Part shown: in pieces, positions 42,039 through 64,000 of the stretch | How positions within the stretch are numbered: position 1 is the stretch's first letter | Layout of the letters: each line of letters starts with the position of its first letter | DNA from: Escherichia phage FP43 | Strand: one strand, 5' to 3' | DNA length: 64,000 bases | Sequence record: MN648445 | Notes under the pieces: model-generated | What the model was told of the DNA's origin: nothing | The model's input: only the letters and a program-made list of their open reading frames with translations | The model's database searches: none | Position numbers and translations under genes: made by a program

Positions 42039-42512
42039 ATGTTATTATCTGGCAAATTATACAAAGAAGAAAAACAAAAATTTTATGATGCACAGAACGG
42101 TAAGTGTCCTATTTGCCACCGTGAATTAGACCCTGATGTTCAAGGTAACCATCTTGACCACGACCATGAATTAAACGGGCCAAAAGCTGGTAAGGTTCGT
42201 GGTTTACTATGTAACCTGTGCAATGCAGCAGAAGGTCAAATGAAGCATAAGTTCAACCGTTCTGGTCTTAAAGGTCAAAACGTTGATTACCTCGAATGGC
42301 TTGAAGCTCTTCTTGCTTATTTGAAACAAGACTATTCTGATAATAATGTCCATCCTAATTTTGTTCCAGACAAAACTAAAGAGTTCTCAAGACTAGGTAA
42401 AGAGGAAATGATGACCGAGATGCTTCAAAGAGGATTTGAATATAATGAATCTGATACTAAAACACAATTAATAGCTTCATTCAAAAAGCAGCTTAGAAAG
42501 AGTTTAAAATGA
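42039..42512 (+). CDS. 49: Endonuclease VII (Holliday-junction resolvase)
   Basis: 157 aa MLLSGKLYKEEKQKFYDAQNGKCPICHREL...HLDHDH...; recognised T4 gp49 pattern. Confidence 0.88.
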   Translation: MLLSGKLYKEEKQKFYDAQNGKCPICHRELDPDVQGNHLDHDHELNGPKAGKVRGLLCNLCNAAEGQMKHKFNRSGLKGQNVDYLEWLEALLAYLKQDYSDNNVHPNFVPDKTKEFSRLGKEEMMTEMLQRGFEYNESDTKTQLIASFKKQLRKSLK

Positions 42513-44326
42513 AAATTGAAAAAGAAATTGAAGGATTAATTTATAAAACTAATAAAGATCTTTTGAACGAGAATGCTAATAAAGATTCTCGTGTTTTTCC
42601 AACTCAACGGGACCTTATGGCTGGTATTGTGTCTAAGCACATTGCCAAAAATATGGTCCCGTCTTTTATTATGAATGCGCATGAAAGCGGAATCATTCAT
42701 ATGCATGATATTGATTATTCTCCTGCTCTTCCATTTACTAATTGTTGTTTAGTCGATTTAAAGGGGATGCTTGAGAACGGATTTAAATTAGGCAATGCTC
42801 AAATTGAAACGCCTAAATCGATTGGTGTTGCTACTGCAATTATGGCACAAATTACTGCACAGGTTGCTTCACATCAATACGGCGGAACGACTTTTGCTAA
42901 TGTAGATAAAGTACTTTCTCCTTATGTTAAACGTACATACGCTAAACATGTTGAAGATGCAGAAAAATGGCAAATCGCTGATGCGTTGAATTATGCTCAA
43001 TCTAAAACAGAAAAAGACGTATACGATGCATTCCAAGCTTATGAATATGAAGTAAATACTCTTTTTAGTTCAAACGGGCAAACGCCTTTTGTAACAATTA
43101 CATTTGGTACGGGAACCGATTGGACCGAACGAATGATTCAGAAGGCAATTCTTAAAAACCGCATTAAAGGTCTTGGTCGTGATGGAATAACTCCTATTTT
43201 TCCTAAACTTGTTATGTTTGTTGAAGAAGGTGTTAATCTTTATAAAGATGATCCAAACTATGATATTAAACAACTTGCGTTAGAATGTGCAAGCAAAAGA
43301 ATGTATCCTGACATTATTTCGGTTAAGAATAATAAAGCTATTACCGGTTCTTCAGTTCCGGTTTCTCCAATGGGTTGCCGTAGTTTCTTGAGCGTATGGA
43401 AAGATTCGACTGGTAATGAAATTCTTGATGGACGTAATAATCTTGGTGTTGTAACACTGAATCTTCCTCGCATCGCGTTAGATTCTTATATTGGAACACA
43501 GTTCAATGAACAGAAATTTGTTGAGCTATTTAATGAACGAATGGATCTGTGCTTTGAAGCCTTGATGTGCAGAATTAGTTCTTTAAAGGGCGTTAAAGCG
43601 ACTGTTGCTCCTATTCTTTACCAAGAAGGTGCATTCGGGGTTCGTCTTAAACCTGACGACGATATAATTGAGATATTTAAAAACGGTAGAAGTTCAGTGT
43701 CTTTAGGATACATTGGTATTCATGAATTGAATATTCTTGTTGGTCGTGATATTGGACAAGAAATTTTAACTAAAATGAATGCTCATCTTAAACAGTGGAC
43801 CGAAAGAACTGGATTTGCTTTTAGCTTATATTCTACTCCTGCTGAAAACCTTTGTTATCGCTTCTGTAAACTTGATACAGAAAAATATGGAAGTGTAAAA
43901 GATGTCACTGATAAAGGCTGGTACACTAACAGTTTCCATGTTTCAGTAGAAGAAAATATTACTCCGTTTGAAAAAATTTCTCGTGAAGCGCCATATCATT
44001 TCATTGCGACAGGTGGTCACATTTCTTATGTTGAACTTCCTGATATGAAAAATAACTTAAAAGGACTTGAGGCTGTCTGGGATTATGCTGCACAACATTT
44101 AGATTATTTTGGTGTTAATATGCCAGTGGATAAATGTTTTACATGCGGAAGTACTCATGAAATGACTCCTACTGAAAACGGATTTGTTTGTTCAGTTTGT
44201 GGAGAAACTGATCCTAAAAAGATGAACACCATAAGAAGAACATGCGGTTATTTGGGAAATCCGAACGAGCGCGGATTTAATCTAGGCAAAAATAAAGAAA
44301 TCATGCATAGGGTTAAACACCAATGA
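42509..44326 (+). CDS. nrdD: Anaerobic ribonucleoside-triphosphate reductase NrdD
   Basis: 605 aa, contiguous with no intron; C-terminal glycyl-radical motif RRTCGY. Confidence 0.88.
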   Translation: MKIEKEIEGLIYKTNKDLLNENANKDSRVFPTQRDLMAGIVSKHIAKNMVPSFIMNAHESGIIHMHDIDYSPALPFTNCCLVDLKGMLENGFKLGNAQIETPKSIGVATAIMAQITAQVASHQYGGTTFANVDKVLSPYVKRTYAKHVEDAEKWQIADALNYAQSKTEKDVYDAFQAYEYEVNTLFSSNGQTPFVTITFGTGTDWTERMIQKAILKNRIKGLGRDGITPIFPKLVMFVEEGVNLYKDDPNYDIKQLALECASKRMYPDIISVKNNKAITGSSVPVSPMGCRSFLSVWKDSTGNEILDGRNNLGVVTLNLPRIALDSYIGTQFNEQKFVELFNERMDLCFEALMCRISSLKGVKATVAPILYQEGAFGVRLKPDDDIIEIFKNGRSSVSLGYIGIHELNILVGRDIGQEILTKMNAHLKQWTERTGFAFSLYSTPAENLCYRFCKLDTEKYGSVKDVTDKGWYTNSFHVSVEENITPFEKISREAPYHFIATGGHISYVELPDMKNNLKGLEAVWDYAAQHLDYFGVNMPVDKCFTCGSTHEMTPTENGFVCSVCGETDPKKMNTIRRTCGYLGNPNERGFNLGKNKEIMHRVKHQ

Positions 44327-44793
44327 ATTATGATAGATTTTATCCTTGCGATTTTGTGAATGGCCCTGGTTGTAGGGTCGTTCTTTTCGTTACAGGGTGT
44401 TTGCATAAATGCGAAGGGTGTTATAATAAATCAACATGGAATGCTAGAAATGGTGTTCCATTCACTGGTGAAACACTAGAACAATTAATTGAATGTTTGA
44501 ATAATGATTATATAGAAGGATTGACTATAACTGGAGGAGACCCTCTCTATCCTGATAACCGAGATGTTATTCATTGCATTGTCCAAACAGTAAAAAATCT
44601 TTATCCCAGTAAAAGCATTTGGTTGTGGACAGGATACAAGTTTGAAGATATTAAACAACTAGAAATGCTTAAATATGTTGATGTTATTATTGATGGGAAG
44701 TATGAGAAAAATCTTCCGACCAAAAAGCTGTGGCGAGGATCAGATAATCAGCGACTTTGGTCAAATACCGATGGGGTGTGGAAACATGATTAA
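44323..44793 (+). CDS. nrdG: Anaerobic RNR activating radical-SAM protein NrdG
   Basis: 156 aa with CLHKCEGC (Cx3Cx2C) motif. Confidence 0.85.
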   Translation: MNYDRFYPCDFVNGPGCRVVLFVTGCLHKCEGCYNKSTWNARNGVPFTGETLEQLIECLNNDYIEGLTITGGDPLYPDNRDVIHCIVQTVKNLYPSKSIWLWTGYKFEDIKQLEMLKYVDVIIDGKYEKNLPTKKLWRGSDNQRLWSNTDGVWKHD

Positions 44794-56413: not shown

Positions 56414-59125
56414 ATGAAAGAATTTTACTTAACGGTTGAACAGATTGGTGATTCAATTTTTGAACGTTACATCGATTCTAATGGCCGTGAACGTACTCGT
56501 GAAGTAGAGTATAAGCCATCGTTGTTTGCACATTGTCCTGAAAGTCAGGCTACGAAATATTACGATATCTATGGTAAACCTTGTACTCGTAAATTATTCG
56601 CTAACATGCGTGATGCCTCCCAATGGATTAAACGCATGGAAGATATCGGACTTGAAGCACTTGGCATGGACGATTTCAAATTGGCGTATTTGTCTGACAC
56701 TTATAACTATGAAATCAAATACGACCATACAAAAATTCGTGTGGCTAACTTCGACATCGAAGTAACATCTCCGGACGGGTTCCCTGAGCCGTCACAAGCA
56801 AAACATCCGATTGATGCTATCACCCATTATGACTCAATTGATGACAGGTTTTATGTATTTGACCTTTTGAATTCTCCATACGGTAATGTAGAAGAATGGT
56901 CTATCGAAATTGCGGCTAAGCTTCAAGAACAAGGTGGTGATGAAGTTCCATCCGAAATTATCGATAAAATCATTTATATGCCGTTCGATAACGAAAAAGA
57001 ATTGTTAATGGAATATCTCAACTTCTGGCAACAGAAAACTCCTGTCATTTTGACTGGATGGAACGTTGAGTCATTTGATATTCCATATGTGTATAACAGA
57101 ATCAAGAATATTTTTGGTGAATCTACTGCGAAACGTTTATCACCACATCGTAAAACTCGTGTTAAAGTTATCGAAAACATGTATGGTTCTCGTGAAATCA
57201 TTACATTGTTCGGTATCTCTGTTCTTGATTACATTGACCTTTACAAAAAATTCTCTTTTACCAATCAACCGTCGTATTCTCTGGATTACATTTCAGAATT
57301 TGAATTGAACGTTGGTAAACTGAAATATGACGGCCCTATTTCTAAGCTTCGTGAAAGCAATCACCAACGATATATTTCTTATAACATCATCGACGTGTAT
57401 CGTGTATTGCAAATTGATGCTAAGCGCCAGTTCATCAACTTGAGTTTGGACATGGGTTATTATGCTAAGATACAGATTCAATCTGTGTTCAGCCCAATTA
57501 AAACATGGGATGCTATTATTTTTAATAGCCTTAAAGAGCAGAACAAGGTGATTCCACAAGGTCGTTCTCACCCGGTTCAACCTTATCCCGGTGCTTTTGT
57601 TAAGGAACCTATTCCAAATCGATACAAATATGTAATGAGTTTCGACCTTACATCTCTGTATCCAAGTATTATTCGCCAAGTGAATATTAGCCCAGAAACA
57701 ATAGCAGGAACGTTTAAAGTAGCTCCACTGCATGATTATATTAACGCAATCGCTGAACGTCCTTCAGATGTGTACAGTTGTTCTCCTAACGGCATGATGT
57801 ATTATAAAGACCGTGATGGTGTAGTTCCAACTGAAATCACTAAGGTCTTTAATCAACGTAAAGAACATAAAGGTTACATGCTTGCGGCTCAACGTAATGG
57901 TGAAATAATTAAAGAGGCGTTGCATAATCCTAATCTTTCTGTTGACGAACCATTAGATGTTGATTATCGTTTCGACTTCAGCGATGAGATTAAAGAAAAG
58001 ATTAAAAAGTTGTCTGCTAAATCTCTTAATGAAATGTTGTTTAGAGCTCAACGTACTGAAGTTGCAGGTATGACTGCACAAATTAACCGTAAATTGCTCA
58101 TCAACTCGCTTTATGGTGCACTTGGAAACGTTTGGTTCCGTTATTACGATTTGCGTAATGCTACTGCAATCACAACATTTGGTCAAATGGCTTTACAGTG
58201 GATTGAACGTAAAGTTAATGAATACCTGAATGAAGTTTGTGGTACAGAAGGCGAAGCTTTCGTTCTTTATGGTGATACAGACTCTATTTACGTATCTGCT
58301 GATAAAATTATCGATAAGGTTGGTGAATCTAAATTCCGTGATACCAACCATTGGGTAGACTTCTTAGATAAGTTTGCTCGTGAACGTATGGAACCGGCTA
58401 TTGATAGAGGTTTCCGTGAAATGTGTGAATACATGAATAATAAGCAACATTTGATGTTCATGGACCGAGAAGCTATTGCTGGTCCTCCGCTCGGTTCTAA
58501 AGGTATTGGTGGATTCTGGACTGGTAAGAAACGTTATGCATTAAACGTGTGGGATATGGAAGGAACTAGATACGCTGAGCCTAAACTCAAAATCATGGGT
58601 CTAGAGACTCAGAAATCTTCGACCCCTAAAGCAGTACAGAAAGCTCTTAAAGAATGTATTCGTCGTATGCTTCAAGAAGGTGAAGAATCATTACAAGAAT
58701 ATTTTAAAGAGTTTGAAAAAGAATTCCGTCAATTGAATTATATTAGCATCGCGTCAGTATCTTCTGCGAATAACATTGCTAAATACGACGTTGGTGGATT
58801 CCCTGGTCCTAAATGCCCGTTCCATATTCGTGGAATTCTGACATATAACAGAGCTATCAAAGGTAATATTGATGCTCCACAAGTTGTAGAAGGCGAAAAG
58901 GTATACGTTCTGCCTTTACGTGATGGAAACCCGTTCGGTGATAAATGTATCGCATGGCCTTCTGGTACTGAAATCACAGATTTAATTAAAGACGACGTAC
59001 TTCATTGGATGGACTACACTGTTCTCCTTGAGAAGACATTTATTAAACCACTTGAAGGATTCACATCAGCAGCGAAACTCGATTACGAGAAGAAAGCATC
59101 TCTGTTCGATATGTTCGATTTTTGA
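56414..59125 (+). CDS. 43: DNA polymerase gp43 (family B)
   Basis: 903 aa; exo motif FDIEV, polymerase motif YGDTDS; N-terminus MKEFYLTVEQIGDSIFERYIDSNGRERT... matches RB69 gp43 as recalled. Confidence 0.93.
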   Translation: MKEFYLTVEQIGDSIFERYIDSNGRERTREVEYKPSLFAHCPESQATKYYDIYGKPCTRKLFANMRDASQWIKRMEDIGLEALGMDDFKLAYLSDTYNYEIKYDHTKIRVANFDIEVTSPDGFPEPSQAKHPIDAITHYDSIDDRFYVFDLLNSPYGNVEEWSIEIAAKLQEQGGDEVPSEIIDKIIYMPFDNEKELLMEYLNFWQQKTPVILTGWNVESFDIPYVYNRIKNIFGESTAKRLSPHRKTRVKVIENMYGSREIITLFGISVLDYIDLYKKFSFTNQPSYSLDYISEFELNVGKLKYDGPISKLRESNHQRYISYNIIDVYRVLQIDAKRQFINLSLDMGYYAKIQIQSVFSPIKTWDAIIFNSLKEQNKVIPQGRSHPVQPYPGAFVKEPIPNRYKYVMSFDLTSLYPSIIRQVNISPETIAGTFKVAPLHDYINAIAERPSDVYSCSPNGMMYYKDRDGVVPTEITKVFNQRKEHKGYMLAAQRNGEIIKEALHNPNLSVDEPLDVDYRFDFSDEIKEKIKKLSAKSLNEMLFRAQRTEVAGMTAQINRKLLINSLYGALGNVWFRYYDLRNATAITTFGQMALQWIERKVNEYLNEVCGTEGEAFVLYGDTDSIYVSADKIIDKVGESKFRDTNHWVDFLDKFARERMEPAIDRGFREMCEYMNNKQHLMFMDREAIAGPPLGSKGIGGFWTGKKRYALNVWDMEGTRYAEPKLKIMGLETQKSSTPKAVQKALKECIRRMLQEGEESLQEYFKEFEKEFRQLNYISIASVSSANNIAKYDVGGFPGPKCPFHIRGILTYNRAIKGNIDAPQVVEGEKVYVLPLRDGNPFGDKCIAWPSGTEITDLIKDDVLHWMDYTVLLEKTFIKPLEGFTSAAKLDYEKKASLFDMFDF

Positions 59126-59165
59126 TATAATGCCATGGACGGTAAACTAATTAAATGAGAGAAAT

Positions 59166-59801
59166 ATGAAAACTACACCAATCACTATCGCTATTGACGC
59201 AATCGTAAAACAAGCTTCATCTCTTGCCACTATGGCTAAAGTAATTAGTCAAAACTCTGCCCGATATAATGCTATTCTTGAAACTCTTCGTCGCCCTGGA
59301 CTGAGTAATTATGAAAGCCGAGTAATTATTACAGGTGTTGGTAAGAACGCTAATATCGCAACTAAAGCTTCCGAGACTTTTGCTTCACTAGGTATTCCTA
59401 GCATGTATTTGAACACCGGGCATTATTCTCATGGCGACGCAGGATTTATTGCACCTAATGATGTATTAGTTCACATCAGTCGTTCTGGTAAGACTGAAGA
59501 AATGATAGGTGTTGCTAAACATCTTCGTATGATTCGTCCTCAGGTTAAACAGATTCTGTTACATTGTAACCCTGACATTCCGCAAGAATACGAAGCTCTT
59601 TTTGATTATACGTTCTGTACAGGCATCGCGGTAGAGGTTGATGAGAATTCTCTGGCTCCGACCATGTCCACTACATTGTTGTTAGCGCTTATCGATACGT
59701 TTGCTATCAACCTTTCGTCTGAACGTGGATTTACCTCTAATGACTTCCTTAAGTTCCACCCTGGTGGTGCACTAGGTGCCATGTTACGAGGCGAACAATG
59801 A
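59166..59801 (+). CDS. SIS-domain sugar-phosphate isomerase (GmhA/KdsD-like)
   Basis: 211 aa; GVGKNANIATKASETF and C-terminal HPGGALG typical of SIS isomerases. Confidence 0.65.
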   Translation: MKTTPITIAIDAIVKQASSLATMAKVISQNSARYNAILETLRRPGLSNYESRVIITGVGKNANIATKASETFASLGIPSMYLNTGHYSHGDAGFIAPNDVLVHISRSGKTEEMIGVAKHLRMIRPQVKQILLHCNPDIPQEYEALFDYTFCTGIAVEVDENSLAPTMSTTLLLALIDTFAINLSSERGFTSNDFLKFHPGGALGAMLRGEQ

Positions 59802-59941
59802 AAGCAATAACAATAGGACTTTTACTATTGATGCTTGTCATGACTATCTACTGGAGCTTAACGGCTCCAGTAATGATTCCGACTCTTATAATCGGATGGA
59901 TTATGATTGGACTACAAGCAAAGTATGAATGCTTTAACTAG
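59798..59941 (+). CDS. 47-aa two-helix membrane peptide
   Basis: MKAITIGLLLLMLVMTIYWSLTAPVMIPTLIIGWIMIGL...; ATGA overlap with isomerase stop; below ORF-track cutoff. Confidence 0.35.
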   Translation: MKAITIGLLLLMLVMTIYWSLTAPVMIPTLIIGWIMIGLQAKYECFN

Positions 59942-59982
59942 AATAGTGTACGATACACCTACTTACCAATGAGGACCACAAC

Positions 59983-61668
59983 ATGAAAAAAGCTGTTATT
60001 CTTGGTGCTGGACTGGCAACTCGTTTGTATCCAATAACGCACCATATTCCTAAGGTGCTTGTTAACTATAAACAAGACACTATTCTGAGCAATTTGTATA
60101 CAATTTATTCTGACCTTGGCGCAGATGAAATTATTGTAGTAGTTCATTCAAAATTTGCTGAAACTGTTCGAGCTTATTGCGAGCAAGAAGGGTTCAATGT
60201 GACTATTCGTACAGTTGATGAAGCGTATGGTTCTGCTTATGCTCTTGCTAAATTATACAAAGATTTAGATGGCCATAACGTAATTGTTAACTGGTGTGAT
60301 ATTATTCCTGACTTTGGTTCATGGTCTTGGAATGTTAACGCAATCTATGTTAAGGGTGATGAATGTCGATATAATTTCGATGGTGAAAATATCACTAACG
60401 TAGGTTCAACAGGTGGTAATGTTGTAGGAATTTATCAGTTCAAAGACTGGGAATTCTACATGGGTTCTACTGATGAGGAAATTCACGAATACTGCAAAGG
60501 TCGTGATTTCGTAGAATTCCTTTACGGCAGTGCATTCAATAAATCAGAGCTTATGAATCTAATTGATTTAGGTGATATGCCTAAACTTGAAAAGGCTCAT
60601 GAAGTTCGTGAACTGAATCGTAGTTTTAATGCAGTTGAAATTGGCGAAGAAACTGTAACTAAATTCGCGTTAACCGAACAAGGTCGAGCTCTTCAAAAAG
60701 ATGAGATTTCATGGTATTTGAAAGTGAAATCAGATTCAGTTCCTCAGTTAGTTTCGGTAAATGAAAATAATTTTGAAATGGAACGTATTAAAGGTAAGCC
60801 GGCATTTGAATATATTAAATCCAAATCAAGTCTTGCTCGTCCACAAATTGTTGATGCAATTTTAGATGCACTGAAATTCAGCACGGACACTTATTTTGTA
60901 AGTCCTGAAACTGTTCGCCGTGATTTCACTAAAGAGTTCTATACGAAAGTTATTGATCGTTGTGAAAGCATTCAGCCATTGATTGATTCATTTGGTAAAA
61001 TCACACATGTGAACTACACTAAGATTGGACGTCTGAAGCCAATGTTGAAACAAGCTTTAGAACATCTTATTCGTTATCATAACCGTTCTCAGGGACAGTA
61101 CTCTGTTATTCATGGTGACCCGAACTTCAGTAATACTATGATTACCGATAACGGCGAAGTCAAGTTTATCGACCCTCGTGGATATTTTGGTGAAACCAAG
61201 ATTTACGGGCCAAAATTGTATGATGAAGCTAAAGTGCTTTATGCTGTTTCAGGTTATGATGAATTCAATGCTAATCCGACCTGGGGTCAGTTTACTATTG
61301 ATGAAACAACTTGTAATGTGACTATTAACATCAATCCATTAGTTTACAAATATGGAAAGATGAGTTCGTTTAACGAGTATCATCATTTGGCAGTAGCAAT
61401 TATCTGGATTGCATTAGGTGGTTATTTCAAGAATAATCCACTTAAAGCGGTTGCCGCATATTATAAAGGTATGGAACTTCTGACTAAGCAATTACGTAAC
61501 ATGGGCCGTGTACTTCAAGACGGCTCTATTAGTTATGACGTAGCAGAACCTGTAACGGCTACTCTGATTACAAAAAATCCTGGTAAATGGGTACTAACTG
61601 ATAAAGAAACTGGTGTTTCCTATCGTCCAATCGGCGGCGATATCACTCATCAATGGGAACGAATCTAA
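59983..61668 (+). CDS. Bifunctional sugar-1-phosphate nucleotidyltransferase / sugar kinase
   Basis: 561 aa; N-terminal MKKAVILGAGLATRLYP (RmlA/GlmU-like); C-terminal HGDPNFSN ... IDPRG (APH/choline-kinase-like). Confidence 0.65.
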   Translation: MKKAVILGAGLATRLYPITHHIPKVLVNYKQDTILSNLYTIYSDLGADEIIVVVHSKFAETVRAYCEQEGFNVTIRTVDEAYGSAYALAKLYKDLDGHNVIVNWCDIIPDFGSWSWNVNAIYVKGDECRYNFDGENITNVGSTGGNVVGIYQFKDWEFYMGSTDEEIHEYCKGRDFVEFLYGSAFNKSELMNLIDLGDMPKLEKAHEVRELNRSFNAVEIGEETVTKFALTEQGRALQKDEISWYLKVKSDSVPQLVSVNENNFEMERIKGKPAFEYIKSKSSLARPQIVDAILDALKFSTDTYFVSPETVRRDFTKEFYTKVIDRCESIQPLIDSFGKITHVNYTKIGRLKPMLKQALEHLIRYHNRSQGQYSVIHGDPNFSNTMITDNGEVKFIDPRGYFGETKIYGPKLYDEAKVLYAVSGYDEFNANPTWGQFTIDETTCNVTININPLVYKYGKMSSFNEYHHLAVAIIWIALGGYFKNNPLKAVAAYYKGMELLTKQLRNMGRVLQDGSISYDVAEPVTATLITKNPGKWVLTDKETGVSYRPIGGDITHQWERI

Positions 61669-62054
61669 TGCACCGTGTAGAAAACATGCTTAATCTTTGT
61701 TTTGATGTCGATGATTGTATAACAGAGTGGAATAACAATCGTGATTACGTGAACTTCAAACCAGACGTCGAAATGGTGTCTGCCATTAATGCCCTGTATG
61801 ATGCAGGGCATACCATAACGCTTTACACTGCCCGTGGTATGAAGTCGGTAGGTCCTGGTCGTATAGCAATTGACATTCTCCCAAGTCTGATTCAGAACTT
61901 GGAAAACATTGGTTTGAAGTACCATAATTTGCTAACACATAAACCAGTATATGATTGGATTATCGACGACAAAGCTATGCGTCCTGACGAATTCAAAGCT
62001 CTTATGAATAAAGGCGAATTCGAAACATTTAAATCATATAAACCAAATCTATAA
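61668..62054 (+). CDS. HAD-superfamily phosphatase (small, KdsC/GmhB-like)
   Basis: 128 aa; motif I FDVDDCIT, motif II ITLYTAR, Lys in HKP, motif IV IIDD. Confidence 0.6.
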   Translation: MHRVENMLNLCFDVDDCITEWNNNRDYVNFKPDVEMVSAINALYDAGHTITLYTARGMKSVGPGRIAIDILPSLIQNLENIGLKYHNLLTHKPVYDWIIDDKAMRPDEFKALMNKGEFETFKSYKPNL

Positions 62055-62100
62055 TAATTTAAGTAAGACCTGCAAAAACCATCGCATCAATTAACGCGAG

Positions 62101-63273
62101 ATGCAAAAAAAAATGAATACTTTTAAAATCGGAACGAATTTTGATTTAGCTCTTCTTGATAAAATCGTAGAGCTCAATAAAACCTATCCTAATAGCTTGA
62201 TAAACGAAGTATATGGCTCTACAAGAGAAATGGCTTTTGTAGCAGCCAGACCTGATTTTAGGCTTCCTGACGTTGACAAAAAGATGTTAGAAGATTACGT
62301 TAAACGTTGTAACGAATTAGGTATTTGCTTTAACTATACACTCAACACGATAAATCCTGGTTCAAAAAGAGAACTAGTTGAGTGGAAGAAGAAAGCTATT
62401 CAGGATTATGTTCAGTATCTTTGGTCAATAGGCGTATGGCGTATTACTATCGCTAACCCTGTTGTTATGGAAATTGTTCGTGAAGTCAATAAAGATATTG
62501 AGATTGAAGTTTCAACAATTCTACATGTTGATGCTGTAACTCAAATCAAATACTTGCATGACCAATATAACATCAAAAAGGTCTGTTGCGGAATTCATAA
62601 GAACCGTTCAGTTTCTTTCCTGAAGCGTGCAGCAGAGTTTTGCAATAAGAACAATATAATATTTGAAGTTCTTGTAAATGAGTTCTGTTCTAATGCTGGT
62701 AAAGGGTATACAACACATTGTAGCTATCGTGACTCTTGCTATATTTTCCATAGTACTGATGTTACCGCTGATGATGCTAAATCCTTAAATGGATATCCTA
62801 TGCAGCACTGTATTAAAGCTCGTGATACAGACCCATTTAACTGGTTGAGAACTCGTTTTGTTCGTCCTCAAGATTTGAAACTTTATAATGATATTGGTAT
62901 CACTCAATTTAAAGTTTCAGGACGTACAGGTAGCACAGACTACATTTTGAAAGTTCTTGAAGCATACGCTTCTGAAAAGTTTGAAGGTAATTTGTTAGAA
63001 CTGTGGAAGCCTTTAGAGACTATTTTCACTCTTGAAAATGAGACTGAGTTTTCACATACAGTAAATATTGAAACCTCTTTGTTAGATGGCTTTTTAGAAA
63101 AAAGGTGGTTCAGACATCCAGATTTTGATTGTGCTAATGAAATCTGTGGGTCAACGTGTACATATTGTGAAAGGTATTATAAACGTCAATTATCTAAAAA
63201 CGGGTTAGCAGAAAACTCCATATCTATTATTGATATAACTAACTCTGATGACGCTTTGAGGTACCCGGAATGA
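62101..63273 (+). CDS. U32-family protein (peptidase U32 / prephenate-dependent hydroxylase fold)
   Basis: 390 aa; blocks align by eye to U32 proteins: IANPVVMEIVRE, IIFEVLVNEFC, KVSGRTGSTDY (cf. KIEGRTKSFYY), plus C-terminal Cys cluster. Confidence 0.6.
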   Translation: MQKKMNTFKIGTNFDLALLDKIVELNKTYPNSLINEVYGSTREMAFVAARPDFRLPDVDKKMLEDYVKRCNELGICFNYTLNTINPGSKRELVEWKKKAIQDYVQYLWSIGVWRITIANPVVMEIVREVNKDIEIEVSTILHVDAVTQIKYLHDQYNIKKVCCGIHKNRSVSFLKRAAEFCNKNNIIFEVLVNEFCSNAGKGYTTHCSYRDSCYIFHSTDVTADDAKSLNGYPMQHCIKARDTDPFNWLRTRFVRPQDLKLYNDIGITQFKVSGRTGSTDYILKVLEAYASEKFEGNLLELWKPLETIFTLENETEFSHTVNIETSLLDGFLEKRWFRHPDFDCANEICGSTCTYCERYYKRQLSKNGLAENSISIIDITNSDDALRYPE

Positions 63274-63509
63274 TTTCTAGAAAAAGTTTTAATTATAAAC
63301 TTAACGAAGAGATTTTGACTATGAAACTGAACACTAACGAACAAATTCTTAAAAAGGCCCTTATGGGCCTGTTTGAAACCAAAGCGGCTAAAGTGATTAA
63401 AGAACCTGTTCAATTGGAATACTACACTGATGCATTCCTTCATAGTGTTCTTGGAAGTATAGATTCTGAAGCTTTACGTTATATCAACATTGTCAAGAAA
63501 TTCAAATAA
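63270..63509 (+). CDS. Hypothetical protein
   Basis: 79-aa ORF with ATGA overlap. Confidence 0.4.
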   Translation: MISRKSFNYKLNEEILTMKLNTNEQILKKALMGLFETKAAKVIKEPVQLEYYTDAFLHSVLGSIDSEALRYINIVKKFK

Positions 63510-63532
63510 GCTTTACGAATTGAGTATATAAT
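63510..63532 (+). promoter_or_regulatory. Middle-type promoter upstream of the TS-family gene
   Basis: GCTTTA 63510..63515, 11 nt, TATAAT 63527..63532. Confidence 0.45.
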
Positions 63533-63568
63533 AAATTGTATTGAGGTAAACATGGAAAATATAACACA

Positions 63569-64000
63569 ATGAAATATATCAAAGCCGCAGATTTTCAAGC
63601 CGCATTTAAAGCAGTCAATCGTGAAATTTTAGAAAACCCCGAATTCGTAACTGATTCTCGTATTGGACGTTGTAATGAAATCGGGTCCATGACAGTAGTT
63701 GTTGACAATCCATCATCATTCAAAATGACCGACCCACGTATTAACCGCATCTCTTATGAATATGCCGAAGACTTCTGGAAGTTTATGATTTCTGGTGGTA
63801 CTGATGCAGAAGAAGCGTTTAAGGCATATCCTAATGTCGCTAAATTCATTTCTAAACCAAAATCAGATGCTTTGCCTGCGAACTTCAACACTTTCTACGG
63901 TCCTCGCATTGTGGCCCAATTACCAGCTCTTCTAAAAGAACTTAAAGAGAAACCTAACTCTCGAAGAGTTGTGTTCCAAATTCTAGAAAGTTCTGATCAG
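63569..64000 (+). CDS. 42: Thymidylate-synthase-family pyrimidine hydroxymethylase (gene 42 position), N-terminal part; 3' end beyond window
   Basis: TS-like blocks AEDFWKFMISGG and KPNSRRVV (cf. PDSRR); position next to gene 43 as for T4 gene 42; N-terminus diverges from T4 gp42 as recalled. Confidence 0.55.
   Translation, partial: MKYIKAADFQAAFKAVNREILENPEFVTDSRIGRCNEIGSMTVVVDNPSSFKMTDPRINRISYEYAEDFWKFMISGGTDAEEAFKAYPNVAKFISKPKSDALPANFNTFYGPRIVAQLPALLKELKEKPNSRRVVFQILESSDQ

Follow-up and report, generated by a model that had tools for sequence, protein, structure and literature searches.

A divergent U32-family protein of T4-like phages as a candidate oxygen-independent hydroxylase of DNA precursors

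The functionally characterised proteins of the U32 family, namely UbiU and UbiV, TrhP and RlhA, are O2-independent and require prephenate (PMC10990095, PMC6599085); such enzymes regain their function when given the chorismate mutase domain of PheA (PMC10990095, PMC6599085), and for UbiU-UbiV, in which prephenate is the established oxygen donor, a chorismate mutase domain is enough to restore activity (PMC10990095). The [4Fe-4S] cysteines of UbiU are C169, C176, C193 and C232, with C176 being a proven cluster ligand (PMC10990095), and the motif of TrhP and RlhA reads CX6CX15CX3-4C. The prephenate-dependent TrhP makes the same ho5U34 of tRNA as the O2-dependent TrhO, and the two enzymes co-occur in organisms whose life includes both oxic and anoxic conditions (PMC6599085). 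RlhA (YdcP), the synthase of 5-hydroxycytidine at C2501 of E. coli 23S rRNA, hydroxylates the C5 of cytosine in a prephenate- and iron-dependent reaction (PMC5727448; PMC10990095). UbiU-UbiV serves as an O2-independent backup of the flavin mono-oxygenases UbiI, UbiH and UbiF, a logic parallel to that which we propose below for a phage gene.

The base 5-hydroxycytosine has reportedly been recognised in 2025-2026 as the anchor of arabinosylated or otherwise glycosylated phage DNA, and the sole enzyme known to us that makes it for this purpose needs molecular oxygen. The enzyme is gp48 of phage RB69, which Lee et al. 2026 have shown experimentally to be an O2- and flavin-dependent dCMP 5-hydroxylase, with a thymidylate synthase (TS) fold binding FMN and an oxygen that derives from O2 according to 18O2 labelling (PMC13326640). 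The base in the phage DNA is arabosylated 5-hydroxycytosine, in which 5-hydroxylation precedes arabinosylation; gp48 and a dNMP kinase are enough for producing 5hodC in E. coli in air, while RB69 and the U32-less phage DLP3 have the same arabinosyl-5hoC chemistry aerobically (PMC13326640). The same study lists the U32 protein, putatively, as a "sugar or heterocycle reductase" (PMC13326640). Starting from Ara5P, the pathway to UDP-arabinose has reportedly been rebuilt with AfhE and AfhF of HY126 and no U32 protein (He et al.), and the authors of the Thanatos paper state that they have 'no valid hypothesis' as to where the hydroxyl comes from. Within the literature other than He et al. 2026 and Mahler et al. 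2025, full-text searches combining U32 or chorismate mutase with these phages returned nothing relevant, and the texts found do not address DNA modification without O2 in such phages.

The locus under study lies in a window of 64,000 nt, the whole stretch of DNA that was analysed, from Escherichia phage FP43 (MN648445), an RB69-like coliphage of the genus Mosigvirus. Its relevant features are the following.

59166..59801, + strand: SIS-domain arabinose-5-phosphate isomerase, RB69 gp55 homologue (Pfam SIS; p000v annotation; PMC13326640)
59983..61668, + strand: bifunctional nucleotidyltransferase/kinase, RB69 gp52:53 / AfhE analogue (Pfam NTP_transferase, weak kinase-domain matches; PMC13326640)
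61653..62054, + strand: HAD-type phosphatase of the UDP-arabinose pathway, RB69 gp51 / AfhF analogue (PHROG 1238; PMC13326640)
62028..62055, + strand: sigma-70-like promoter match TTTAAA-16-TATAAT upstream of the U32 gene (consensus scan, 10/12)
62101..63273, + strand: U32-family gene, RB69 ORF050 homologue (longest ORF, 390 aa)
63270..63509, + strand: 79-aa ORF, its ATG overlapping the U32 stop codon (ATGA; PHROG 8601)
63552..64000, cut by the window end, + strand: 5' part of a TS-family gene, RB69 gp48 homologue (p000v annotation)

The promoter match is a weak indication, sigma-70-like matches being fewer in the region than in shuffled sequence. The same 64-kb window encodes the anaerobic ribonucleotide reductase NrdD/NrdG, and the phage has a tRNA; a chorismate mutase is absent from this Mosigvirus itself. 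The 390-aa frame reported by the initial annotation at 62101-63273 on the + strand is indeed present, and the gene is under purifying selection, but either of two in-frame ATGs (62101 and 62113), between which lies a run of A9, could be the start codon. Since phage p000v has a 1-nt indel at this run and the second ATG annotated as start, while the homologues begin with MNTFK, translation probably starts at 62113, giving a product of 386 aa.

The initial annotation had also described the gene as adjacent to that of a TS-family hydroxymethylase, and on both counts it needs to be amended: the 79-aa ORF (63270-63509) intervenes, and RB69 gp48 is experimentally an O2/flavin-dependent dCMP C5-hydroxylase (PMC13326640). 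The full-length homologue of the TS-family neighbour carries L143E, C146, D169N and N177D, and judged by its sequence the neighbour is of the O2/flavin-dependent 5-hydroxy-dCMP synthase type. This changes the question: instead of asking which extra chemistry the U32 protein contributes, one has to ask why the phage possesses two candidate C5-hydroxylases. Because gp48 and dNMP kinase suffice for 5hodC aerobically, the U32 protein is, on this reasoning, dispensable in air; and because the U32-less DLP3 shares its arabinosyl-5hoC chemistry with RB69, no additional DNA modification calls for it.

The U32 protein matches Pfam PF01136 (Peptidase_U32) over residues 98-290, with E=7.4e-11 and a score of 42.2 bits, the gathering cut-off being 22.4; among the matches listed, 117 of 120 homologues likewise have PF01136. 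Its assignment to the family, originally made by eye, is thereby sustained, albeit for a divergent member. Of the sequence blocks on which that assignment relied, IANPVVMEIVRE aligns with the U32 helix following beta-4 and KVSGRTGSTDY with the 'K-I-E-G-R' motif of the family, while EVLVNEFC is located before the cysteine region. A profile of 93 homologues aligns with E. coli UbiU, UbiV, TrhP and RlhA at an hhalign probability of 97% (E=1e-10), RlhA being the best single-sequence hhalign match of the phage protein (E 1e-5), and the protein conforms to the U32-type TIM-barrel fold. Single-sequence and profile searches of the PDB with the U32 protein retrieved no U32 entry, fold comparison alone leading to Mk0906 of Methanopyrus kandleri (PDB 5d88; 14% identical, 247 aa, barrel only). 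The protein reaches only 18.4 bits with the NCBIfam UbiU equivalog, for which the cut-off is 440, and its homologues about 12 bits with that of TrhP, for which it is 534; by sequence comparison, phage U32 proteins are a separate subfamily, apart from both equivalogs. The TS-fold signature of the neighbouring gene product (Cys146, D169N / N177D) is absent from the U32 protein, which has an unrelated TIM-barrel fold, and any function common to the two would be analogous and not homologous.

Nine cysteines are invariant in the 93 homologues (C162, C196, C207, C213, C237, C344, C349, C353 and C356), most of them in two segments that flank the subfamily version of the U32 motif.

62686..62811, + strand: candidate [4Fe-4S]-binding segment C196-x10-C207-x5-C213-x23-C237 (cysteines invariant, 93 homologues)
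62920..62931, + strand: G-R-T-G, residues 274-277, within FKVSGRTGS (subfamily version of 'K-I-E-G-R')
63130..63168, + strand: invariant C344-x4-C349-x3-C353-x2-C356 (candidate second metal or Fe-S site)

In the first segment, C207 and C213 (CX5C) align with C169 and C176 of UbiU and their equivalents in RlhA, ligands 1 and 2, RlhA sharing also the CYI-H context, and C237 (GYPMQHC) aligns with UbiU C232 (GYPTLC); three phage cysteines thus match ligands of UbiU. The canonical third U32 cysteine has no aligned partner in the phage protein, C196 being a candidate, and the spacing CX6CX15CX3-4C is not preserved, the alignment being clean for the first two ligands only. The cysteine conservation noted in the initial annotation is confirmed, with four invariant cysteines in the cluster region. 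In the motif aligned with KIEGR of UbiU, TrhP and RlhA, G274, R275 and T276 are invariant. The C-terminal cysteines have no counterpart in the canonical 331-aa UbiU and possibly form a second metal or Fe-S site; the phage protein as a whole is predicted to bind Fe-S.

A separate line of evidence comes from chorismate mutase, the product of which is prephenate. Directly downstream of the U32 gene, 12 of 17 T4-like loci encode a protein of 78-132 aa with a score above the Pfam cut-off for CM_2 (E values 1e-10 to 8e-19), and Serratia phage LC53 has U32, chorismate mutase and TS in succession, with overlapping stop and start codons. By tblastn, a mini chorismate mutase is present in 54 phage records, where, among the matches listed, it lies by the TS-like gene and usually beside a U32 'peptidase'. 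One might suppose that this chorismate mutase serves the TS-like enzyme, an idea that we rejected on finding that chorismate mutase or its fusion with DAHP synthase (DAHPS::CM) accompanies U32 in loci with no TS gene nearby. Indeed, unrelated metagenomic phages without a nearby TS gene have either the fusion or a lone chorismate mutase within three genes of U32; altogether, chorismate mutase, DAHPS or the fusion lies near U32 in 8 distant loci, with a chorismate mutase domain in 6 of these. The linkage, which is new here, is therefore with U32 and not with the TS gene, and it suggests that phage U32 proteins may use prephenate. Among representatives of the recurrent neighbour clusters, Pfam flagged no CmoA-type methyltransferase that would convert prephenate to carboxy-SAM in the style of carboxymethylcytosine phages. 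As to the 79-aa ORF of the window, it is present in 7 T4-like loci in the slot that other genera fill with the mini chorismate mutase and has no Pfam match; that it could be a degenerate chorismate mutase was discarded, given an hhalign probability of 0.3% and three loci that have both genes.

The distribution of the two candidate hydroxylases is uneven. The U32 gene was found in 221 phage records, all at least 80% identical, and among the matches listed every organism genus named is either Shewanella or a member of the Enterobacterales, all of them facultatively anaerobic. The TS-like family extends to 377 records; 57 of these are Acinetobacter and 22 are Rhizobium phages, the hosts of which are strict aerobes. 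Phages of these two groups are not among the listed U32 matches, and the one locus directly checked, that of Maestro, reads SIS-AfhE-HAD-TS-GT, with neither U32 nor chorismate mutase; U32 hence appears to be missing from these 57 and 22 records. The correlation with the host is one-sided, because some E. coli phages have no U32 despite a facultatively anaerobic host: the TS-like gene occurs without it in about 40 records of Escherichia phages, one of them the Dhakavirus that we examined. A strict rule that would tie U32 to facultatively anaerobic hosts in both directions is broken by the E. coli Dhakavirus. The contrast between phages of aerobes and anaerobes, it may be added, reflects a few phage clades and not many independent events.

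Beyond T4-like phages, 46 U32 loci of phages or metagenome-assembled genomes (MAGs) represent about 30 lineages. In some 20-27 of the non-T4 cases the U32 gene lies beside GT1-like, AfhE-like, SIS, HAD, dNMP-kinase-like or MazG genes, the remainder having other contexts, and in many unrelated phage lineages it is also near genes for dCMP deaminase and DNA polymerase. In the 10 kb to the left and right of U32, all 46 loci are free of hydroxylase-type TS genes, the single TS found being a canonical ThyA; such TS-less U32 phages include IMGVR_UViG_3300035520_000516 and contigs of 190-294 kb. In a phage contig of about 49 kb, which has U32 without sugar-nucleotide genes, the 80% that was covered, including all replication and nucleotide genes, encodes neither a TS homologue nor anything else that can be recognised as a base-modifying enzyme. 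U32 occurs also on MAG contigs labelled as obligate anaerobes, although the hosts of metagenomic phages are loosely inferred, and the metagenomic DAHPS::CM is of the type of Bacteroidota, a group that includes aerobes. Both the host pattern and the TS-less U32 loci are new here, and from the genomes compared the distribution of U32 and TS-like genes looks like non-orthologous displacement.

How, then, would such a phage obtain its modified base when oxygen is lacking? We lean, if only slightly, towards the explanation that the U32 protein hydroxylates pyrimidines at C5 with prephenate and without O2, as a backup of the O2-dependent enzyme or in its place. It would be a TIM-barrel Fe-S enzyme of the DNA-hypermodification pathway, its likeliest reaction being that from dCMP to 5-hydroxy-dCMP. 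In the proposed scheme, the phage has its dCTP destroyed and all C is to be replaced by 5-hydroxy-C, later arabinosylated on DNA; the gp48-type enzyme yields the same product with O2 and reduced flavin. Because dCTP is destroyed and the gp48 type requires O2, no cytosine precursor would be left without oxygen, and in the anoxic gut the U32 protein would supply the 5-hydroxy precursor. The hydroxyl oxygen would come from the conversion of prephenate to phenylpyruvate, and electrons might exit through the Cys-bound cluster or clusters. In Mosigvirus the prephenate would be provided by PheA and TyrA of the host, while other genera would contribute their own chorismate mutase. Independence of O2 and dCMP as substrate are both what we infer for this protein; the U32 substrates known to us comprise RNA polymers and a lipid but no mononucleotide. 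The suggestion of the initial annotation that the protein generates a modified base is in this respect favoured, by family, linkages and distributions.

A wider formulation, at which we stop a little short of even confidence, is that the phage subfamily constitutes the first O2-independent hydroxylase of DNA precursors, acting on dCMP or, in some lineages, dUMP with prephenate as donor. In gut and other phages, the TS-like/flavin/O2 and the U32/Fe-S/prephenate routes to 5-hydroxycytosine DNA would be interchangeable; where the host is an anaerobe, the phage would depend on U32 only, and in some phages chorismate mutase or DAHPS::CM would be an auxiliary metabolic gene that feeds the oxygen donor.

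Other readings have to be weighed against the prephenate-dependent hydroxylase. The U32 protein could work elsewhere in the hypermodification pathway, as a redox enzyme for the sugar or the modified base or by hydroxylating cytosine on DNA after replication. This would suit a gene always found within a sugar-nucleotide/glycosyltransferase cluster, were it not for U32 phages devoid of sugar-nucleotide genes such as that of about 49 kb, and it would agree with Lee et al. listing U32 as a putative reductase, a role that leaves the chorismate mutase linkage unexplained. Action on DNA is conceivable in that known U32 enzymes work on polymers (RNA), and the second invariant cysteine cluster suggests electron transfer; yet dNMP-kinase and MazG neighbours point to nucleotide-level chemistry, DLP3 makes arabinosyl-5hoC without U32, and the reconstituted route from Ara5P to UDP-arabinose reportedly dispenses with it as well (He et al.). 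We deem such a role unlikely, if deserving of attention. Quite improbable, to our judgement, is that the protein hydroxylates tRNA or rRNA of host or phage as TrhP and RlhA do, its position in a DNA cluster being coincidental. Its closest characterised relatives act on RNA, with RlhA the best single match, the phage has a tRNA and the chorismate mutase link suits any prephenate-dependent U32 enzyme. However, the host already possesses TrhP and RlhA, the extra C-terminal domains of these proteins (453 and 653 aa, respectively) are missing from the 390-aa protein, and the scores fall far under the NCBIfam cut-offs. Moreover, glycosyltransferase, dNMP-kinase, MazG, dCMP-deaminase and DNA-polymerase genes are its neighbours in many unrelated phage lineages; action on tRNA, which the initial annotation had entertained, is accordingly not what one expects of a gene that travels with genes of DNA glycosylation and dNMP metabolism and not with RNA genes.

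Proximity to the flavin-dependent TS homologue, one or two genes away in T4-like phages, and the two candidate Fe-S sites could also be read as signs of a redox partner that delivers reduced flavin or electrons to the TS-like flavoenzyme without being a hydroxylase. This we consider very improbable: gp48 works in E. coli without U32, TS-carrying phages of aerobes appear to do the same, no hydroxylase-type TS gene lies close to U32 in any of the 46 distant loci, and the association with chorismate mutase would go unexplained. Finally, GenBank entries speak of a 'peptidase' or a 'putative protease of the collagenase family', in line with the historical name of the family. That name is inherited from PrtC, whereas the members with characterised functions are hydroxylase components (PMC10990095, PMC6599085). 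Proteolysis would account neither for the invariant cysteine clusters nor for the setting among genes of nucleotide metabolism nor for the link with chorismate mutase. We know of no defined catalytic peptidase residues in the U32 family, and a protease is hardly credible here.

With the hydroxylase reading retained as the preferred one, RlhA is comparable in Pfam family, TIM-barrel core and chemistry, the latter being that proposed for the phage protein. It differs in its large C-terminal extension (653 aa, against 386-390 aa) and rRNA substrate, whereas phage U32 has its own C-terminal CX4CX3CX2C, has not the canonical spacing of the third and fourth cysteines and is set in deoxynucleotide/DNA-glycosylation gene clusters. 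gp48 and U32 would be a pair analogous to TrhO and TrhP, with a DNA precursor instead of tRNA as proposed substrate and a TS-fold flavoenzyme in place of the rhodanese TrhO. UbiU-UbiV, of the same U32 family, is a heterodimer that acts on a lipid with the accessory UbiT, while the phage has only one U32 gene, the product of which may hold a second cluster site in its own chain. RB69 gp48, DLP3 gp80 and the HY126 enzyme, encoded one or two genes away from U32 where both are present, would share its proposed product and pathway, but their fold and cofactor are unrelated.

Many 5-hydroxycytosine phages infect gut Enterobacterales and carry an anaerobic ribonucleotide reductase. If our proposal is true, a U32 hydroxylase would close the O2-free gap in the published pathway, prephenate-as-oxygen-donor chemistry would reach DNA precursors beyond RNA and quinones, and phage genes for chorismate mutase and DAHP synthase would have a reason. 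To our knowledge, direct hydroxylase activity in vitro has yet to be shown for any U32 enzyme, and the phage protein would lend itself to such an assay, as a small and soluble enzyme of one subunit that acts on a mononucleotide. The combination of U32, glycosyltransferase and dNMP kinase would become a marker by which uncultured phages that infect anaerobes and have hypermodified DNA could be recognised. Predictions for phage therapy or restriction evasion that are drawn from aerobic cultures may fail in the gut, where U32-less phages such as Dhakavirus may be at a disadvantage.

No single argument for the phage U32 protein working like its cellular relatives is stronger than the linkage of its gene with chorismate mutase (CM), an enzyme whose product is prephenate. 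All characterised U32 hydroxylases need prephenate, which is the oxygen donor for UbiU/V, and the chorismate mutase domain of PheA by itself restores activity (PMC10990095, PMC6599085). In 12 of 17 T4-like loci, the protein encoded directly downstream of U32 (78-132 aa) passes the Pfam cut-off for CM_2, chorismate mutase type II; Serratia phage LC53 has the three genes in the order U32-CM-TS, and their stop and start codons overlap. Searching with this mini-CM by tblastn yields 54 phage records and, among the matches listed, the gene lies beside a TS-like gene and usually adjoins a U32 'peptidase'. FP43, a Mosigvirus, has no chorismate mutase of its own. In unrelated phages, DAHP-synthase::CM fusions accompany U32 (loci L043-L045, L047 and L056), as does a stand-alone CM in locus L005 and a DAHP-synthase-like gene in loci L013 and L031; a TS gene is absent from all these loci. 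The fusions, of 320-372 aa on IMG/VR contigs L043-L047 and L056, share 43-49% identity with the bifunctional Bacteroidota enzyme and seem to serve as auxiliary metabolic genes in the shikimate pathway and prephenate branch.

The 64-kb window comes from a T4-like Mosigvirus; over positions 59000-64000 its identity is 99.3% with Escherichia phage p000v and about 97-98% with many RB69-like phages. The features considered here are:

42509-44326 (+), NrdD, anaerobic ribonucleotide reductase
44323-44793 (+), NrdG, radical-SAM activase of NrdD
56414-59125, DNA polymerase gp43
59166-59801, SIS arabinose-5-phosphate isomerase
59983-61668 (+), nucleotidyltransferase/kinase, a single intact 561-aa ORF in the FP43 window
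61653-62054, HAD phosphatase
62101-63273 (+), U32 gene, ORF in the window
63270-63509 (+), 79-aa ORF (PHROG 8601), its ATG overlapping the U32 stop codon (ATGA)
from 63552, TS-family gene, its 3' part beyond the window end

The RB69 reference divides the nucleotidyltransferase/kinase into ORF052 and ORF053, a sequencing error according to Lee et al. (PMC13326640). The true start of U32 is probably the second ATG, 62113, since the two in-frame ATGs (62101-62115) lie on either side of an A9 run in which p000v shows a one-base difference, and the homologues start with MNTFK; slippage in this run would alter the first four codons only, because the second ATG is 3' of it. The 79-aa ORF, whose product may be a U32 accessory protein, has no Pfam match and no relation to chorismate mutase by hhalign; it is found in seven T4-like loci, three of which also have the mini-CM.

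The initial annotation proposed that the ORF at 62101-63273 encodes a U32-family protein, and the HMM search it suggested bears this out: the score with Pfam Peptidase_U32 is 42.2 bits, the cut-off being 22.4, and a profile of 93 homologues aligns with E. coli UbiU, UbiV, TrhP and RlhA at an hhalign probability of 97%. Sequence-only searches of the PDB gave no match and the NCBIfam scores lie far under the UbiU and TrhP equivalog cut-offs, so that, judged from its sequence, the protein is a separate subfamily within the U32 family. Purifying selection on the gene is strong, with pN <=0.001 and pS 0.025-0.067 within Mosigvirus, and pN 0.09-0.13 between genera, where synonymous sites are saturated. 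Nine cysteines are invariant across the 93 homologues; C207 and C213 align with U32 cluster ligands 1 and 2, and C237 (GYPMQHC) with C232 of UbiU (GYPTLC), whose other ligands are C169, C176 and C193, but the canonical third cysteine has no aligned partner, the invariant C196 being a candidate. The pattern in E. coli TrhP and RlhA is CX6CX15CX3C, and the phage protein has an additional invariant CX4CX3CX2C motif at its C-terminus. This alignment, with the third ligand unpartnered, makes Fe-S binding a plausible prediction.

The neighbouring TS-family gene had been taken for a hydroxymethylase, an assignment that has to be revised. The TS homologue of RB69, gp48, is a flavin-binding enzyme producing 5-hydroxy-dCMP with oxygen derived from 18O2, and the arabinosylated base in RB69 DNA, present in mono- and di-arabinosyl forms, is 5-hydroxycytosine rather than hmC (Lee et al., NAR 2026, PMC13326640). 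The signature of the gp48 class (L143E, C146, D169N, N177D) is present in the TS-like gene of p000v and of 15 other T4-like loci adjoining U32. As recounted by Lee et al., the conversion of Ara5P to UDP-arabinose was reconstituted by He et al. with AfhE and AfhF of phage HY126; the homologous RB69 enzymes, SIS isomerase included, are assigned computationally (PMC13326640). RB69p050, the U32 protein, figures there in Table 1 only, as a 'sugar or heterocycle reductase' and without experiment, and the terms U32, RlhA, TrhP and prephenate are absent from the text (PMC13326640). A literature search, with He et al. 2026 and Mahler et al. 2025 outside its range, found no other paper in which these phages are tied to U32 or to chorismate mutase; as to where the hydroxyl comes from, the Thanatos paper states that it has no hypothesis.

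What, then, does U32 do? Beyond family membership, all readings derive from gene linkage and distribution. The most economical one, towards which we lean, is a prephenate-dependent, O2-independent pyrimidine-C5 hydroxylase of the DNA-hypermodification pathway; its likeliest reaction would be dCMP to 5-hydroxy-dCMP, and alongside the O2-dependent gp48-type enzyme it would play a complementary part. The presence of NrdD and NrdG indicates that the phage is otherwise equipped for O2-free replication, and a GrcA-like glycyl-radical protein, by p000v annotation, lies about 15 kb upstream. A different function within this pathway, for instance on DNA or in keeping with the 'reductase' label, is conceivable though doubtful; RNA hydroxylation is unlikely, a role as redox partner of gp48 quite improbable, and a protease hardly credible.

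At 80% identity the 46 loci outside the T4-like group fall into about 30 lineages. In some 20-27 of the loci U32 lies beside modification or nucleotide genes, the remaining loci having other contexts. Such neighbours are homologues of the RB69 arabinosyltransferase, AfhE, SIS, a HAD phosphatase, TAGT or UDP-galactopyranose mutase, dCMP deaminase, MazG or dUTPase-like enzymes, or dNMP kinases of thymidylate-kinase-like type. When six-frame translations reaching 10 kb to either side were searched with a TS-family HMM, a single locus of the 46 yielded a TS gene, and this one has the canonical ThyA signature, not that of the hydroxylase. One phage of about 49 kb, assembled over 80% of its contig with all replication and nucleotide genes covered, encodes MazG-like, dNMP-kinase-like and GT1-like proteins, U32, Pol III alpha and dCMP deaminase, and this assembled part holds no TS homologue or other recognisable base-modifying enzyme. 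In the distant T4-like contig L051 the order is pol...HAD-GT-GT-SIS-AfhE-U32...UvsX-gp41, with no TS gene in the syntenic slot. Within the stretches covered, the pattern in distant phages looks like a displacement of the TS-type hydroxylase by U32. Between T4-like and unrelated phages U32 is 44-56% identical, as against 24-37% for other module proteins (GT 24-26%, AfhE 25-30%, SIS 28-37%). Either the U32 gene is under exceptionally tight constraint or it has spread horizontally at a later date.

Several of these loci have features of their own. Six MAG or metagenome contigs (L003, L004, L006, L009-L011) share a module of a GP88-like protein, a guanylate-kinase-like::SAM-methyltransferase fusion and a 265-aa protein, then U32, which may constitute a hydroxylate-then-methylate (5-methoxy) nucleotide pathway; in L003 there follow NT5C deoxynucleotidase, a PnuC-like transporter, deoxynucleoside kinase, a radical-SAM/SPASM protein, another, distant U32-like gene and a nucleoside deoxyribosyltransferase. 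In the megaphage-like L002 (a 466-kb JGI contig), L014 and L015, dCMP deaminase and Pol III alpha immediately precede U32, with a UDG-fold gene, thymidylate kinase, a MazG-like and a radical-SAM/SPASM gene in the vicinity; here the modified base could derive from uracil instead of cytosine. Loci L016 and L039, with a TAGT-family DNA glycosyltransferase, a dUTPase/DCD-like gene and UDP-galactopyranose mutase flanking U32 and no TS-like hydroxylase nearby, suggest galactofuranosylated 5-hydroxypyrimidine DNA, as reportedly present in Rhizobium phage RL38J1.

Protein searches retrieved 337 U32 homologues, 76-88% identical among T4-like phages of Enterobacterales and Shewanella and 45-58% in a large group from metagenomes, whose proteins have about 360 aa; 63 loci were gathered for neighbourhood analysis and their ORFs clustered. 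The subfamily is essentially viral: the gene occurs in 8 of about 100,000 species genomes, all eight being anaerobic-lineage MAGs or phage-looking contigs. U32 is present in 221 phage records, and among the organism names listed for them, seven fewer than the total, every genus belongs to Enterobacterales or Shewanella. Of the 377 records with the TS-like family, 57 are Acinetobacter and 22 Rhizobium phages, and the locus of Acinetobacter phage Maestro (SIS-AfhE-HAD-TS-GT-kinase-GT-GT) has neither U32 nor CM. From these genera and the Maestro locus, U32 appears to be missing from phages of strict aerobes, a contrast with anaerobes resting on few clades. The rule of host lifestyle is one-sided, as E. 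coli Dhakavirus has the TS-like gene without U32. Its representative vB_EcoM_005 (L065), with a 5hoC-type cluster AfhE-HAD-kinase-TS-GT lacking U32, chorismate mutase and SIS isomerase, is a natural U32-less comparator in the same host species. In phages of facultative anaerobes, U32 behaves as a cassette that is optional and may or may not include CM, inserted beside the O2-dependent hydroxylase.
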